This document shows, piece after piece, positions 59,121 through 64,000 of a DNA stretch of 64,000 bases (position 1 is its first letter; every line of letters begins with the position of its first letter). This stretch comes from Candidatus Cloacimonadales bacterium (GTDB taxonomy: Bacteria; Cloacimonadota; Cloacimonadia; Cloacimonadales; JAFGVF01): positions 96,001-160,000 of the forward strand of contig CAXXJV010000001.1 of NCBI GenBank assembly GCA_963663475.2. The letters are read 5' to 3'. Position numbers and translations under genes: made by a program. Below the pieces are notes generated by a model. The model saw only the letters and a list, made by a program, of their open reading frames with translations, was not told the DNA's origin and did no database searches.

Positions 59121-59225
59121 ACTGGGAGCGCCGACATCCCTGTCGGCATCTTAATTAACTGGGAACGTGGGCATCTTGCCCGCATTAATTCGTGTTAATT
59201 CGCTTAAATTCGCGTTAATTCGTGT
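59121..59225 (+). repeat. Two ACTGGGA-led units plus four AATTCG tandem units
   Basis: 59121-59149 is identical to the unit at 56190; followed by TAATTCGTGT TAATTCGCTT AAATTCGCGT TAATTCGTGT. Confidence 0.8.
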
Positions 59226-59256
59226 AAAAGCTCTTAAAATATTAAAGGAGAAAAAA

Positions 59257-61935
59257 ATGAATATACTTGATTTATTTAAAAAAACATCAACAACCATCTT
59301 AACTCAAAATAAAATTGAGGAAGAAAAACCTCTTTGGTCAGCTAAAATCACACCTTCAGAAATGGATTTAGCTCTACATAATGCCCATAATGGAAGATTG
59401 AAACACCTTAATAACTTATATGATAGACTTTATAAGCTTGATGATAACCTGGCTGGGGATACTGATGTCAGAGTAGAAGCTCTTAAATCAGCTTCTTTCA
59501 CTTTCCCTGAAGGTCTCTCGAAGCAACAACAAGACTTCTTTAAAGCCTTTTTAGAGAACTTTTTTACAGTCCTCATTGACCAGGCTCTTGATTTAAAACT
59601 AACTGGTTCTCTCTTTCGTCAGATTACCTTTAAGCTGGAAAACAATCTTTATACCATAGACAAGTTCATAGAATACAAAAACCTCGATTTGAGGGCTGAA
59701 AAATCTGAATTGGTCTTGTATGTCGAAGATGAGAAGAAAAGCCTCTCTGATGATAAATTTGTGCGTCTATATCAAAATTATTCAGTCTATGAGTCTATAA
59801 TCAAATACTATGCTTTCTTTTCCTTTGCTCTCAACAACTGGGCTTCCTTTGTTGAAACCTATGGAAAACCTATCAGAATTGGTAAGTATAAACCAGGTTC
59901 AACCCCTGAAGAGAAGAACCTACTCAAGTCTATGGTAAAGAACCTGGGTACAGACTTAGGAGCTGTTATCTCTGAAAATACTCTAATTGAGTTCGCAGAC
60001 TTTAAAAATGCTTCAGCTAATGCTAATCTCTACGCAACTCTTTTAGATTTCTGTAAAAAATCAATCTCTAAAAGAATACTTGGCCAAACTCTCACAACTA
60101 ATACTGAAAAGACAGGATCCTATGCTCAAGCTAAGGTTCATAACATGGTCAGACAGGATATCCTCCAGGCTGACATCAGAGACTGCTCTAAGTATATCTC
60201 TTATATCTGCTCCAGGTTAAACAGATTGAACTTCGTTGACCAAGATATTAAAGTAACTCTTACTATCCCTGAACATGTTGATTTAAACACTAAGATAAAC
60301 ATCGATACTCAACTAAACAAAATCATCGAAATCGAACCTGATTATTGGTACACCACTTATGGCATCCCTGTACCAAAGTCTGGTGCAAAACTAAAGGAGG
60401 TTGCATCTCAGCTCTTCCCTTTTCAGAATAGGATTGGGGTTGGCTCCACTGGGATCGCTGGCATCCCTGTCGGCATAACTGGGAACACGGGCATCCCTGC
60501 CGCCATAACTGGGAACGCGGGCATCCCTGCCCGCACAGGCAGTTCAACTGATTGTATATCTTCAAAGTCCCCTTCAGGGGATTTAGGGGCTTCCCTCAAA
60601 GAACTCAAGAAAATCAAATCTCAAATTAAAGAAGCCAAATCTTTCAAAGATATAGAAAATATGTCTTATCCTAAAGACCTCTATTTAACCTATGCGAATG
60701 AGATGTATCAAACACTTCTTAAAGAATACTATAAGCTAAGAAAAGCTTCTCTAAAGAAGAAAGCTTCCTCTTCAATTCTCAACTCTCAATTCTCAATTCT
60801 CAATTCTGATGACTTCAACTTCGAAATAGACTGGACCCTGGAAGATACCAAAGCCCTCCATGCATTCAGAGCAGAAACCTTTATCGTAGCAGGAGTTACT
60901 TCTCAATCCATGCTTGACATGATTAAGTCTGAAGCTGAAAAAGCCTTTACTCAAGGTACTACCTTTCAAGAGTTCCAGGAAAATCTAAAACTAAAAGGCT
61001 TTGAACCTGATAATCCTTACCACCTAAGAACTAACTTCCAACAAGCTATTAAATCAGCTCGTGCATCTGCAGAATGGAAAGATATCCAGGACACTAAAGA
61101 AATCTTCCCTTATCTCCGTTATGTTACTATGCAAGATGATGCTGTGAGAGATGAACATAGAGCCTTAGATGGCATAGTCAGACATGTAGATGATCCTTTC
61201 TGGGATGAGTATTATCCTCCTAATGGCTGGGGTTGTCGTTGTGGTAAAGAACAACTAACTGAAGAAGAAGCAAACGGAGACCCTGGACTCAAGAGAGATG
61301 TTCCTCCTGATTCAAATGTTAAAGAAGAGTTTAAACGCAATGTAGGCAAAGACAATTCTCTCTTTGGGGATTGGTTAAGCTGTGAAGATGCTAAAAACAT
61401 CTCTATTTTATACCCAGAAATGTCTATCAGAAGCAAGCGTTTACACATCTACAACTCAGGTAAAAAGCATTGCCCTGATTTATATGCAAATACCTACAAG
61501 GATTTAAAGCTTAAGGATTGGAAAGATATGCCAGAGAATAAACTGCCAAAACTCTACGATACAGATGGTAAAACTAAAGATGAATTGCTCAAAGACTATG
61601 CAGATTATCTTGGAGACAGGAGGATTAAGTACAACGATAACACTCCAATAGAACTACTTGCTATTAAAGCTCAAAAATTCAAGAACTACGATTTGAAAGA
61701 CATTAAAGGTAGACTAAAGTATATGAATACCATCGATGATGTTTTAACAAAGCCTGATGAAGTATGGCAACAATCTGATAAAAAGAGAATACGATTCTTT
61801 AAGAAATACTCTAAAAATATCATTCTTCTTGTGGAAATCAAGGAAGGTTCTTATGAATACTTTAACATCATTGTAGCTTCCAATTCAAATAGTATAGATA
61901 AAAAACGTACTGGATTCTTTGGAATAAAGAAATAA
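59257..61935 (+). CDS. Portal (DUF935 / Mu gp29) - MuF minor head - PBECR2-like nuclease fusion
   Basis: ATG at 59257 with AAGGAG. Portal motifs YGKPIRIGKY, ILGQTLTT, GSYAQAKVH; MuF motifs VRDEH..LDG, DDPFW..YYPPNGWGCRC; C-terminal L..PDEVW...RFFK.Y...R.G. Confidence 0.85.
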   Translation: MNILDLFKKTSTTILTQNKIEEEKPLWSAKITPSEMDLALHNAHNGRLKHLNNLYDRLYKLDDNLAGDTDVRVEALKSASFTFPEGLSKQQQDFFKAFLENFFTVLIDQALDLKLTGSLFRQITFKLENNLYTIDKFIEYKNLDLRAEKSELVLYVEDEKKSLSDDKFVRLYQNYSVYESIIKYYAFFSFALNNWASFVETYGKPIRIGKYKPGSTPEEKNLLKSMVKNLGTDLGAVISENTLIEFADFKNASANANLYATLLDFCKKSISKRILGQTLTTNTEKTGSYAQAKVHNMVRQDILQADIRDCSKYISYICSRLNRLNFVDQDIKVTLTIPEHVDLNTKINIDTQLNKIIEIEPDYWYTTYGIPVPKSGAKLKEVASQLFPFQNRIGVGSTGIAGIPVGITGNTGIPAAITGNAGIPARTGSSTDCISSKSPSGDLGASLKELKKIKSQIKEAKSFKDIENMSYPKDLYLTYANEMYQTLLKEYYKLRKASLKKKASSSILNSQFSILNSDDFNFEIDWTLEDTKALHAFRAETFIVAGVTSQSMLDMIKSEAEKAFTQGTTFQEFQENLKLKGFEPDNPYHLRTNFQQAIKSARASAEWKDIQDTKEIFPYLRYVTMQDDAVRDEHRALDGIVRHVDDPFWDEYYPPNGWGCRCGKEQLTEEEANGDPGLKRDVPPDSNVKEEFKRNVGKDNSLFGDWLSCEDAKNISILYPEMSIRSKRLHIYNSGKKHCPDLYANTYKDLKLKDWKDMPENKLPKLYDTDGKTKDELLKDYADYLGDRRIKYNDNTPIELLAIKAQKFKNYDLKDIKGRLKYMNTIDDVLTKPDEVWQQSDKKRIRFFKKYSKNIILLVEIKEGSYEYFNIIVASNSNSIDKKRTGFFGIKK

Positions 61936-61950
61936 ATAAGTTATAACGTA

Positions 61951-61977
61951 AAAAGGGCTATTCTATATAGCCCTTTT
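61951..61977. terminator. Bidirectional intrinsic terminator
   Basis: AAAAGGGCTAT-TCTAT-ATAGCCCTTTT. Confidence 0.85.
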
Positions 61978-62200
61978 GTTTGATATTAAGACGCTAACAC
62001 GCCACGAATCAACAAACGTCGCCTCAGGGTTAGCCCCATCAGTCAAGATGCTCGTGGTTTACTTATCAACCTCAGCGTCCACACAGCTTAAACAAGGATA
62101 AGCTCTGGCTGTGCTTCCAGTTTCATGGACCCGTAAAGTCTTAATCACTTCTAGGCTTTCCACACCAATCAAACGAGGATTAAGCTCTCTCGGTGCTTCT
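61951..62200 (-). ncRNA. Structured multi-pseudoknot ncRNA; resembles the skipping-rope class from memory
   Basis: Closing stem ATTAAGAC/GTCTTAAT (62145-61985); internal stems GTCCA/TGGAC, CTGG/CCAG, CCACGA/TCGTGG; long-range pairings CACAGC/GCTGTG, CTTATC/GATAAG, GCTAAC/GTTAGC; own promoter and terminator. Confidence 0.75.
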
Positions 62201-62206
62201 ATTTAT

Positions 62207-62234
62207 ATTATACTCAAGTTCTTACTTTTTGCAA
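62207..62234 (-). promoter_or_regulatory. Sigma70-type promoter for the ncRNA
   Basis: Minus strand TTGCAA-N16-TATAAT; predicted start near 62200. Confidence 0.65.
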
Positions 62235-62238
62235 GTTA

Positions 62239-63537
62239 TCATTCATCAATTAAACCCAAAATCCACTCAATCCAAGAAATTACAGTACTTGCTCTTCGAT
62301 TATATGTATACTCTGATTCTACACTATTAATATTAGATATTTTCATAAATTCTACTATACTTTCTTTCTCTGGTCTAACCTGATTATCTAAGTAATCTAA
62401 TAGTGCTAATCTGAAAGGTTTATGAGATAATATTAGTTCTGTATATTTAAGATTTCTTTCTCTATTAGTTTTATTGAAAAGAGATTTACCCATTTCACTC
62501 AAGTAATATACGATATCTCCTTGTTCATTTTTTCCTTTCTCTATTAGCATTAAATATAAACAAGCATTAGTATAATAGCCAGTTTGTCTATTAGTAAAAT
62601 TATAGTTTTCAGTTATTTCATCATTGCTAATCTCATTTTTATCGTTCAGAATCTCACAAATGTTAATAACTCTTTCAAAACTATTAGCTTGTGGAAAAGG
62701 TACATTTGTAGATTCCTCTGTAACTCTTACAAAAGATAATATCTCTATAATATCATTTAGCCGTATTGGTGAATCTGTGAAAGTATAAGATTGTTTTCTC
62801 ACGAGTACTATTGAATTATATTTGTTTTTGTCAGTAAATCTGTATTCATGTAGAGTAAAAATACCATTTAAAAACGTCATATAAACTGGTCTTATAGTCT
62901 TATTGATTTTATTCTCCCATAAACGGTATGGATAATAAAGTTGCCTAATCAGAAAGTCCTCAGATATTGTGTTCTTAGCTTCTATTAGAATTAAAGAGTT
63001 TTGACTCTCAAATCCTCCATCTATCTCCATTTGAGATTTCTCTACAGAACACTCCAAAAGATTCAGATCATGTTTTTGGACACTAAAATTGAAACATCCT
63101 GAAGACATTCTACCACTTACTGTTAATTGGCTATCCTCATCAAAGAAATCATTAAAAATACCTGAAATTTGAGCAATATTTATTGCTGTAGATTCGCTTG
63201 TGATATTCCCTTGTTCAATTGATAGGATATGTTCTGGAAAAGGTACAGTCTTAACATCTGTTTTAATTTTTTCAAAGTCATGATATGCTTCAAAATTTGA
63301 AATGACATAATCACCTCTTGTTAAAGGGAGGATTGCAAGTTTATATTTTTTAAATAATTTTGGCAAAGTATTCTTGAAGTCAAACTTAGTCATAAGTCTT
63401 GCTTCTCGAAATTCTTTAATCTCCTTTGCGGTAATAATATATTTACCTTCATCAGTTATTTTTTTATCAATCTTATATTTATCAAACAATTTTCCCCAAG
63501 CCTCATCAAGCTTAGTTTCACTAGATTTTTTACTCAT
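62239..63537 (-). CDS. Putative type II restriction endonuclease (PD-(D/E)xK) with a C-terminal wHTH-like domain
   Basis: QMEIDGGFES...ILIEAK...RQLYYPY; overlaps the upstream Dam MTase stop. Confidence 0.7.
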   Translation of the reverse strand: MSKKSSETKLDEAWGKLFDKYKIDKKITDEGKYIITAKEIKEFREARLMTKFDFKNTLPKLFKKYKLAILPLTRGDYVISNFEAYHDFEKIKTDVKTVPFPEHILSIEQGNITSESTAINIAQISGIFNDFFDEDSQLTVSGRMSSGCFNFSVQKHDLNLLECSVEKSQMEIDGGFESQNSLILIEAKNTISEDFLIRQLYYPYRLWENKINKTIRPVYMTFLNGIFTLHEYRFTDKNKYNSIVLVRKQSYTFTDSPIRLNDIIEILSFVRVTEESTNVPFPQANSFERVINICEILNDKNEISNDEITENYNFTNRQTGYYTNACLYLMLIEKGKNEQGDIVYYLSEMGKSLFNKTNRERNLKYTELILSHKPFRLALLDYLDNQVRPEKESIVEFMKISNINSVESEYTYNRRASTVISWIEWILGLIDE

Positions 63538-64000
63538 AGTTCCTCACTAGGACTTCATCAACTTCTCCTCTAGATGATCCTACAGAGTTAATCGACCTTC
63601 TAGCCTGAACATTAAGTATTTGATAATCTTTGTATAATTCTCTTATATACTCTGTGTTTGAATTAGATAAAAGAAATTTAACTCCTCTTTGATTTAAATT
63701 ATCACATAATAATTTTAATCTCAATTGCTCATCTTTATTGAAGCCACCCTGAGTGTATCCAGTAAAACTTGAACTAGAAGAAACAGGATCATAAGGTGGA
63801 TCAAAATAAACAAATGCTCCCTTTCTAATTCCTTTTACTGATTCTTCAAAATCACCATTGAGAAAAGTTATATTATTATTCAACAGATATTTACTAACAG
63901 CTCTTAGTGTTACCTCATTAACGATGTTTGGATTCTTATAGAAACCAAAAGGGGCATTGAATTCTCCAGCTTGATTTACTCTAAACAAACCATTATAACA
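63530..64000 (-). CDS. Dam/DpnM-like DNA adenine methyltransferase, C-terminal part (5' end outside the window)
   Basis: CYNGLFRVNQAGEFNAPFG, FVYFDPPY, FTGYT, LLSNS, ARRSIN. Confidence 0.9.
   Translation of the reverse strand, partial: CYNGLFRVNQAGEFNAPFGFYKNPNIVNEVTLRAVSKYLLNNNITFLNGDFEESVKGIRKGAFVYFDPPYDPVSSSSSFTGYTQGGFNKDEQLRLKLLCDNLNQRGVKFLLSNSNTEYIRELYKDYQILNVQARRSINSVGSSRGEVDEVLVRNYE

Follow-up and report, generated by a model that had tools for sequence, protein, structure and literature searches.

Close to the right end of a 64,000-nucleotide (nt) stretch of DNA from Candidatus Cloacimonadales bacterium (assembly GCA_963663475.2, contig CAXXJV010000001.1, positions 96,001 to 160,000 of the forward strand; hereafter the window, numbered from its first letter), a gene for a phage head protein with a C-terminal PBECR2 domain meets, tail to tail, a small RNA (sRNA) gene on the opposite strand. 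We found this sRNA gene of a Mu-like prophage to be real and previously undescribed. To judge from sequence comparison, its RNA is a head-to-tail tandem of two ~80-nt units and represents a new sRNA family of Cloacimonadota Mu-like prophages. The features of the locus are as follows (other loci and genomes are given L and G numbers).

59167..61935, plus strand: portal-MuF-PBECR2 fusion gene of 922 amino acids (aa), with Pfam matches Portal_Mu, Phage_Mu_F and PBECR2
61951..61977, both strands: bidirectional intrinsic terminator common to the sRNA and the portal-MuF-PBECR2 gene, 11 pairs and a loop of 5
61950..62200, minus strand: predicted sRNA transcript of ~250 nt, with a putative start at ~62200 (AGAAG) and a putative end in the T-run 3' of the terminator
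62207..62234, minus strand: sRNA promoter of sigma-70 type, TTGCAA-N16-TATAAT, 10/12 matches, best of 18 promoter-like sites
62120..62200, minus strand: unit A, the canonical two-hairpin unit (model R1, 92.1 bits, E 4e-29)
62162..62196, minus strand: hairpin 1 of unit A (RNAalifold), apical loop L1 UUAAUCCUC at 62183-62175
62135..62151, minus strand: hairpin 2 of unit A, loop L2 GAUUAA at 62146-62141, complementary to L1
62041..62118, minus strand: unit B, a diverged second unit without a promoter of its own (R1 30.5 bits, E ~1e-7)
62113-62082, minus strand: hairpin 1' of unit B, stem CACAGC/GCUGUG, loop CUUAUCC at 62102-96
62071-62056, minus strand: hairpin 2' of unit B, loop GAUAAG at 62067-62
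61985..62057, minus strand: GC-rich 3' extension of unit B, ending in GUCUUAAU, 75-82% identical to L002 and L010

The promoter (62234..62207) points toward the terminator at 61951-61977, which begins 16 nt past the stop of the 922-aa open reading frame (ORF) and can serve both strands because an A-run precedes the stem and a T-run follows it. A preliminary description of the window had proposed a minus-strand transcript with this promoter, a terminator shared with the convergent gene, no credible ORF, raised GC content and dense pairing; the promoter, the terminator, the lack of an ORF and the GC peak held. The promoter was the top-scoring of the 18 sites, and the terminator was the only terminator-like site in 61000-64000. 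The ORF list contained no minus-strand ORF of at least 40 aa between 61950 and 62238, where the overlapping ORFs lie on the plus strand, and no ORF between the PBECR2 stop (61935) and the sRNA. GC content was 48.5% at 62000-62199, as compared with 24-33% in the restriction enzyme-like gene upstream of the sRNA and 27-35% in the PBECR2-coding end, and a 261-nt stretch folded somewhat better than its shuffles (minimum free energy (MFE) z-score -2.6; 1 of 200 shuffles folded equally well). These data support a structured, separately transcribed non-coding RNA at the place usually taken by an immunity ORF. Every unit starts at a conserved AGAAG, both at promoter starts and at internal unit junctions. 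At L017, L028 and L031 the promoter is an unrelated one (TTGACA-N17-TATATT), yet AGAAG lies at the same distance from it as in the window.

Model R1 was built from an alignment of 13 units, for which RNAalifold gave two hairpins. Since R1 scores 62118-62041 at 30.5 bits, the second part of the RNA is a diverged copy of unit A; it retains the outer stem CACAGC/GCUGUG, and its hairpin 1' loop is one base shorter than that of unit A. The preliminary description had drawn one pseudoknot of ~250 nt, a fold that is not borne out because the RNA is composed of two tandem units of an ~80-nt family. Its individual pairings fared unevenly against the comparative data. The CTTATC/GATAAG pairing is the loop-loop pair of unit B. 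CACAG/CTGTG survives as the outer stem of hairpin 1', whereas the CTGG...CCAG hairpin whose loop was to pair with CTGTG finds no backing. CCACGA/TCGTGG is kept, with a G-U pair or a bulge, in the two other loci that hold that part. The TTTAC/GTAAA and GGG-CTAA-CCC pairings were not backed, nor was the “closing stem” ATTAAGAC/GTCTTAAT, because its 5' arm is the conserved hairpin 2 loop and is absent in unit 1 of L002 and in L010, both of which still end in GTCTTAAT. Unit B shares the GC-rich extension only with L002, L010 and L066.

The number and arrangement of units vary among loci. Many loci carry a single unit and the window holds two, and arrays range from 1 to 4 units per locus, in which the individual units may or may not have a promoter in front (L017, L038, L066, L072). 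The short forms in G007 and G006 consist of ~80 nt followed directly by a terminator. In the genome of the window itself, a second copy lies 2.5 Mb away and is likewise convergent to a MuF-PBECR2 gene; in it, ~75 nt of the middle are missing and the 5' motif recurs close to the 3' end.

In each unit the apical loops of the two hairpins are complementary to each other. Among 24 distinct units of the main family, 92.0% of cells were paired, as compared with 81.0% in shuffles and 29-41% when the partners were slid, and 10 of 22 pairs had changed on both sides. The L1-L2 helix was 97.7% paired, with compensatory changes in 2 of its 6 pairs; by pair counts, both sides had changed in 4/7 pairs of the hairpin 1 outer stem and in 4/5 pairs of the hairpin 2 stem. 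Because both loop-enclosing stems also covary, the contact is best described as a kissing loop (pseudoknot-type) and not as a nested helix. The canonical unit has the loop pair UUAAUC/GAUUAA, which is replaced by UUAAAC/GUUUAA in L006/L022, by UUAGCC/GGCUAA in G044/G073 and by CUUAUC/GAUAAG in unit B of the window. Between L002 and L010, a C-to-U change in loop 1 is answered by G-to-A in the partner.

PBECR2 was present without a credible R1 match in 12 Cloacimonadota genomes, and we read the DNA 3' of the PBECR2 stop in these. Many such loci showed a terminator, GC-rich non-coding DNA of ~90-100 nt and a promoter-like site in convergent orientation, and three of these distant loci aligned with one another, forming sub-family 2. 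Its first hairpin, a homologue of the main family's, starts with AGAAGCAUC, contains a GAG bulge and ends with GAUGUGGA. A model of this sub-family (R2) found it in 11 of 151 genomes, two of them weakly, with the loop pairs CCUGC/GCAGG, GCCUGC/GCAGGC, CCUUC/GAAGG, ACUACC/GGUAGU and GCGCC/GGCGU. Its 12 distinct units had 93.9% of cells paired (83.4% in shuffles, 27-45% with slid partners) and compensatory changes in 6 of 15 pairs. G079 has four paralogues, each with its own loop pair, in which the rest of hairpin 1 is nearly identical. A weak R2 match at the expected place in L077 carries CUUGCU/AGCAAG, and no complementary loop pair was seen at L079, L081, L087 and L089. In MFE folds of sub-family 2 and L077 the complementary segments come out as nested helices, and the kissing reading there comes from hairpin 1 homology and the pair counts. 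Weak R1 matches in G052, G084 and G135 were left out as lacking the motif on inspection, and R2 matches in G030 and G140 for weak score alone. Over the two homologous sub-families, the predicted loop-loop pairing has covaried through no fewer than nine different letter pairs, and the compensatory changes in three helices together with complete swaps of both loops point to a fold under selection.

Contigs of two RNA libraries from different studies, a microbial mat sample (X11) and a marine sediment sample (X14, summed depth up to 236), cover 61980-62202 with a likeness of 85-99% and include array-form junctions also seen in DNA. This is consistent with expression and is not proof of it, because RNA libraries can contain DNA and the contigs show neither ends nor strand. 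Parts of 61700-62500 uncovered in the RNA runs were not read as silence, since the flanks differ between phages and silence is nothing that contigs can reveal. A 239-nt contig of X11 is circularly permuted (62172-62202, one extra base, then 61980-62184) and represents either a tandem array or a circular RNA of ~224 nt, which are not distinguishable; tandem DNA arrays that would explain it exist (X5, L066). In two contigs of X14 an Illumina adapter directly follows window positions 62183 and 62185, placing fragment ends in or at the edge of the hairpin-1 loop, which could reflect a cleavage site or plain fragmentation.

The convergent gene encodes a portal-MuF protein with a variable C-terminal domain after MuF, the hallmark of MuF polymorphic toxin modules. 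The PBECR2 match (PF18810) spans aa 832-917 (61660-61917) at 44.2 bits against a cut-off of 27.1 (E 2.7e-11). Among related prophages, identity is 90-99% over the portal and MuF parts but drops to 55-60% over the last 160 aa, as is typical of a polymorphic C-terminal domain. The AlphaFold2 (AF2) model of the domain (predicted local distance difference test (pLDDT) 86) had BECR RNases as its top structural neighbours, all weak (Z 4.5-2.9; colicin D 4.5, CdiA-CT 3.8, BrnT 3.4, RelE 3.0). A Foldseek search of the model against the PDB gave nothing at E <= 0.001, and tblastn of the PBECR2 part against GenBank phages gave no match. Within the portal-MuF ORF, three tandem repeats of ~30 nt at 60430-60540 (GGCATCCCTG...ATAACTGGGAAC) encode a GIP/GIT-rich linker, and a related repeat family with a 53-nt period occurs at many places of the genome. 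A further stretch in the PBECR2-coding part, 61620-61629, is perfectly complementary over 10 nt to the loop of hairpin 1 (GAGGATTAAG; p 0.003 with shuffled probes as the control). Antisense control of the PBECR2 mRNA was rejected, with the 10-nt match found only in the window and no covariation elsewhere: loci of variant 2 had 8 nt (p ~0.15), and L006, L021 and L046 had none.

Past the window, the minus strand of the prophage continues with a MuA-type transposase, an AAA protein, a GemA-like gene, DUF3164, the Dam methylase and the restriction enzyme. The sRNA ends this early operon, head-on to the packaging block. Two genes lie directly upstream of the sRNA on its own strand:

62239..63537, minus strand: type II restriction enzyme-like gene (DUF6996/6997/7226), same-strand cargo upstream of the sRNA (PADLOC REase_II, E 4.6e-120)
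63530..64000, minus strand: Dam-type D12 DNA methyltransferase gene by domain matches, running past the window

It had been suggested that the RNA might instead belong with this restriction-modification (RM) pair. Other loci do not repeat this link: upstream of the RNA, L002 carries an ORF6N/HTH gene and G006 membrane ORFs, and a methylase is present only at L137. The RM pair is cargo of the window's prophage copy only. At L040 (1531-2427), as at 62239-64000 of the window, a restriction enzyme-like gene (DUF6996/6997/7226) and a Dam-type methylase form cargo at the end of the early operon. The G006 genome holds four identical copies of one prophage region (L005, L008, L011-L016), which is what an active transposable (Mu-like) phage should leave.

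The proposed link of the RNA to the PBECR2 gene is supported, since the RNA recurs at that gene end in distant phages. In the main family, a unit was convergent to the PBECR2 end in 8/8 distinct intact prophage loci (the window, L002, L004/7, the G006 type, L006/L022, L038, L066 and L046/L068). PBECR2 3' stubs are retained beside the unit at L010 and L045 and, by visual reading, at L072 and L017/L070. In L006 (968-1447) the PBECR2-coding part has an in-frame stop (YLGD*TIKG) and the sRNA unit is intact. In eight distant loci the PBECR2 part was 25-46% identical; six had a convergent promoter-like site ~90-110 nt from the stop, five had a terminator on that strand, and in L077 and L087 weak R2 matches fell exactly at this place. 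MuF genes were present in 55 of the 151 genomes of the phylum sample, and none of 8 strong MuF genes without PBECR2 had an R1 or R2 match or a comparable gap. Two of these eight genes, at L115 and L116 (in G112 and G137), have a tail of 270-320 aa with an HEFGH metallopeptidase-like motif and, by visual reading, homologous co-directional small ORFs 2 nt past the stop. This is the layout usual for immunity genes, and they are thus probable toxin-immunity pairs.

Other sequences around the units also deserve mention. Immediately 5' of the -35 element of the sRNA promoter there are two to four ACGAATTA-like direct repeats, each of ~10 nt, which are kept even between phages with diverged sRNA sequences; they may be sites of a phage regulator. 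Their positions are:

L002, 1400-1470
L072, 3760-3830 and 3990-4040
L082, ~1870-1900
L087, ~1890-1920

Besides, a homologous ORF of 88-93 aa, of no known family, adjoins orphan sRNA units at L028 (5355-5621) and L017 (6416-6697); its C-termini read ...FWWYLDEL and ...YWWWLEKL, and in L028 two convergent units enclose it. G006 also has a copy of hairpin 1 that, together with the sRNA promoter, forms the leader of two small membrane-protein ORFs (80 and 179 aa).

No known RNA family accounted for these units. Rfam 15 gave no match at gathering score in the window, in L002, or in sets of 5 and 13 loci (the presence of the C4, pRNA and skipping-rope models in the library is unconfirmed), and at E up to 10 the region 61850-62300 returned only nine unrelated families (E 0.76-9.8). 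The resemblance to the skipping-rope motif put forward in the preliminary description thus found no support in the Rfam scan. There was no tRNA or tmRNA in the window, and blastn of the RNA against GenBank phages gave no match. Pattern matches outside Cloacimonadota were taken as chance (9/18 genome and 2/5 viral stretches, without flanking similarity). An omega-RNA of a TnpB-like neighbour was rejected, the 432-aa neighbour being a restriction enzyme-like protein. A mimic or antisense of the host CRISPR repeat was rejected as well, local alignment and duplex energy being within chance (p 0.03-0.2); the host array (G000:C1, ~1257800-1264100) has a repeat word occurring 87 times, a repeat of ~36-37 nt ending in ...ATTGAAAC and a period of 73. 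Searches of open-access text, supplements excluded, turned up no account of an RNA at MuF-PBECR loci, and the accessible part of a 2026 BECR preprint (10.64898/2026.08.28.747851) names protein immunity partners only.

What the RNA does can be proposed only tentatively. We favour, well short of confidence, the view that it is an RNA partner or inhibitor of the PBECR2 domain, because the cassette occupies the position of an immunity gene, follows PBECR2 through deep divergence and is absent at MuF genes with other tails or none. The folded unit would pair functionally with the PBECR2 domain of the portal-MuF protein encoded tail to tail with it; it would most likely bind the predicted RNase and restrain it in cells that carry or produce the phage. 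The sRNA would then replace the small immunity protein of other MuF toxin loci, where 89.4% of 191 toxin genes were followed by such an ORF (Jamet 2017, PMC5576092). An excess of RNA would come from the tandem units and the strong promoter, and orphan chromosomal copies might serve as stand-alone RNA immunity against domains injected by incoming phages.

Several observations weigh against an RNA partner of PBECR2. First, the RNase activity itself is uncertain, because an alignment of 13 PBECR2 sequences has no invariant His or Ser/Thr. Arg89 is present in 12 of the 13 (His in L091), and E105, W107, K119, F139 and G156 are invariant. According to Iyer 2017 (PMC5512222), His and Ser/Thr form the usual active site, Arg occurs in one family, and the PBECR of Mu gp30 is called inactive and “probably” RNA-binding; like it, the domain here may be a non-catalytic RNA binder. 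Second, the layout is convergent and downstream, unlike that of type III toxin-antitoxin (TA) loci. Third, co-occurrence across the 151 genomes is incomplete: PBECR2 at Pfam level was found in only 7/15 genomes with a credible R1 or R2 match, and such a match in only 7/16 PBECR2 genomes. No convergent promoter was found at L079 and L089, and L091 has no GC-rich gap after the PBECR2 stop. G101 has three units at two loci (two in L028, one in L031) with no PBECR2 gene or stub seen, and five species of genus g5 keep the sRNA beside a stub of only 30-60 aa in what appears to be a prophage remnant. Fourth, unit types do not track PBECR2 variants: one variant occurs with U1 alone (L004), U1+U2 (L038), hairpin 1 plus extension plus U2 (L002) and U1+B+U2 (L066). 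Finally, shared descent confounds the linkage: the PBECR2-type MuF genes seen all come from a single phage lineage, in which the early operon finishes at this point; synteny alone could explain the association, all cases being kin.

A rival, only slightly less probable in our assessment, is an antisense or regulatory RNA that is independent of PBECR2 and carries a specificity code. One loop would serve as effector, with the other as the site it matches, on the same or another transcript, much as in the c4 RNAs of P1/P7 and the CI RNA of P4; the loop letters would set the phage or target, and genome architecture alone would account for the location behind the early operon. No other reading explains the orthogonal loop codes and the orphan copies as well. 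The loop pairs are very diverse, down to the separate pair of each of the four G079 paralogues, and copies persist where PBECR2 has decayed. The G006 leader copy favours it too, the direct ACGAATTA repeats upstream suggest regulated expression, and tandem multi-copy sRNAs are common among regulators. Against it, most copies have a terminator 3' of hairpin 2 instead of a regulated gene, and the Rfam C4 model gave no match. No conserved target was found either: the complement of L1 occurred at 77 sites genome-wide, as compared with ~42 expected, with no clear target, and anti-Shine-Dalgarno targets were rejected on this result. The 10-nt match in the PBECR2 ORF, being confined to the window and not covarying, does not supply one.

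The complementarity of two loops within one RNA also raises the idea of self-association, in which L1 of one molecule pairs with L2 of the next, as in the phi29 pRNA, and a non-catalytic, RNA-binding PBECR2 on the 12-fold portal-MuF holds the oligomer, for head assembly or for packing and injection. We regard this as unlikely, even though the loops are complementary and covary, the pairs are orthogonal within one genome and the sRNA gene abuts the portal gene. The lack of canonical His and Ser/Thr in PBECR2 and the RNA binding proposed for the inactive Mu gp30 PBECR in Iyer 2017 would also suit it, as would the ~10-nt linker between the hairpins, which may disfavour an intramolecular kiss. Opposed to it are the orphan chromosomal copies without any phage head genes, the tandem arrays of variable unit number and the absence of a match to the Rfam pRNA model. 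The MuF part of the portal fusion should, moreover, face the capsid interior and not the motor side, and we know of no such RNA for Mu-like or terminase-portal phages. It is similarly improbable that the sRNA is a specific ligand of an RNA-binding, portal-fused PBECR2, with a loop-linked RNA assembly built into the head or injected with the DNA.

Least probable, and quite unlikely, is a functionless cassette, that is, a boundary of recombination or cargo insertion (promoter, leader, terminator) that duplicates and spreads along with the moron region and whose pairing stabilizes a by-product transcript: tandem duplication together with stubs of the neighbouring gene (L045, L072), the differing upstream cargo genes and the copy serving as a leader for ORFs would agree with it, but compensatory changes in three helices with complete loop swaps, the same start kept by differing promoter sequences and retention of the sRNA in five species of one genus would not.

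An RNA partner of PBECR2 would invite comparison with several known systems. With type III TA antitoxins (ToxI, CptI, TenpI), the shared traits are repeated structured RNA units, although many loci here carry a single one, a pseudoknot-type fold, an adjoining predicted endoribonuclease gene and a mobile element. The differences are that the units here are ~80 nt as opposed to ~36-45 nt, often have their own promoter and lie downstream and convergent in all loci, whereas type III RNAs are upstream, on the same strand and co-transcribed, with a terminator between RNA and toxin gene. The protein here is a BECR-fold domain on a portal-MuF head protein and, by Pfam, not ToxN/AbiQ, CptN or TenpN. 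Type III arrays are cut into units by the toxin, which is inhibited in an RNA-protein complex; the only hint of this here is the conserved AGAAG at starts and junctions. With the MuF toxin-immunity modules (Jamet 2017), the locus shares a MuF head protein with a variable C-terminal domain and a place directly downstream where a protective partner is expected; it differs in having an opposite-strand sRNA cassette instead of a downstream ORF.

Some other RNAs share further traits with the units. The c4 antisense RNA of P1/P7 and the CI RNA of P4 are phage RNAs of ~80 nt; their loops match short sites of the transcript they belong to, and the differences that separate related phages are compensatory. 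The units here resemble them in size, in loops that match short sites and in compensatory differences among relatives, but do not match the Rfam C4 model, have no regulated gene downstream and are not located in an immunity region. The phi29 pRNA has two complementary loops, covarying between relatives, that pair hand in hand. Two complementary, covarying loops of one small phage RNA and a packaging-side gene are common to both cases, while the covariance model gave no match, the phage here is Mu-like and terminase-based, and chromosomal orphans and tandem arrays occur. In type I TA systems such as par/Fst and txpA/RatA, convergent RNAs share a terminator. The present locus likewise combines a convergent small RNA and a bidirectional terminator with the gene for a putatively harmful protein in a prophage, but the overlap is only the 27-nt terminator, the product is a 922-aa structural fusion and not a small peptide, and there is no conserved antisense site.

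Whatever its function, this is a compact natural RNA in which two loops have been rewritten at least nine times and are yet complementary, and it offers a ready-made set of orthogonal kissing loops, a clear case in which to test specificity coding by phage RNAs and a handle on the almost unstudied phages of Cloacimonadota. Should a portal-bound RNA assembly prove true, it would be the second independent structural or packaged phage RNA after phi29 pRNA, with loop codes that separate co-resident phages. If the RNA neutralizes or serves PBECR2, BECR-fold RNases, so far paired with protein immunity factors, would gain their first RNA partner, and RNA-based immunity would extend from type III TA systems to virion-carried effectors, with stand-alone RNA immunity genes on the chromosome.

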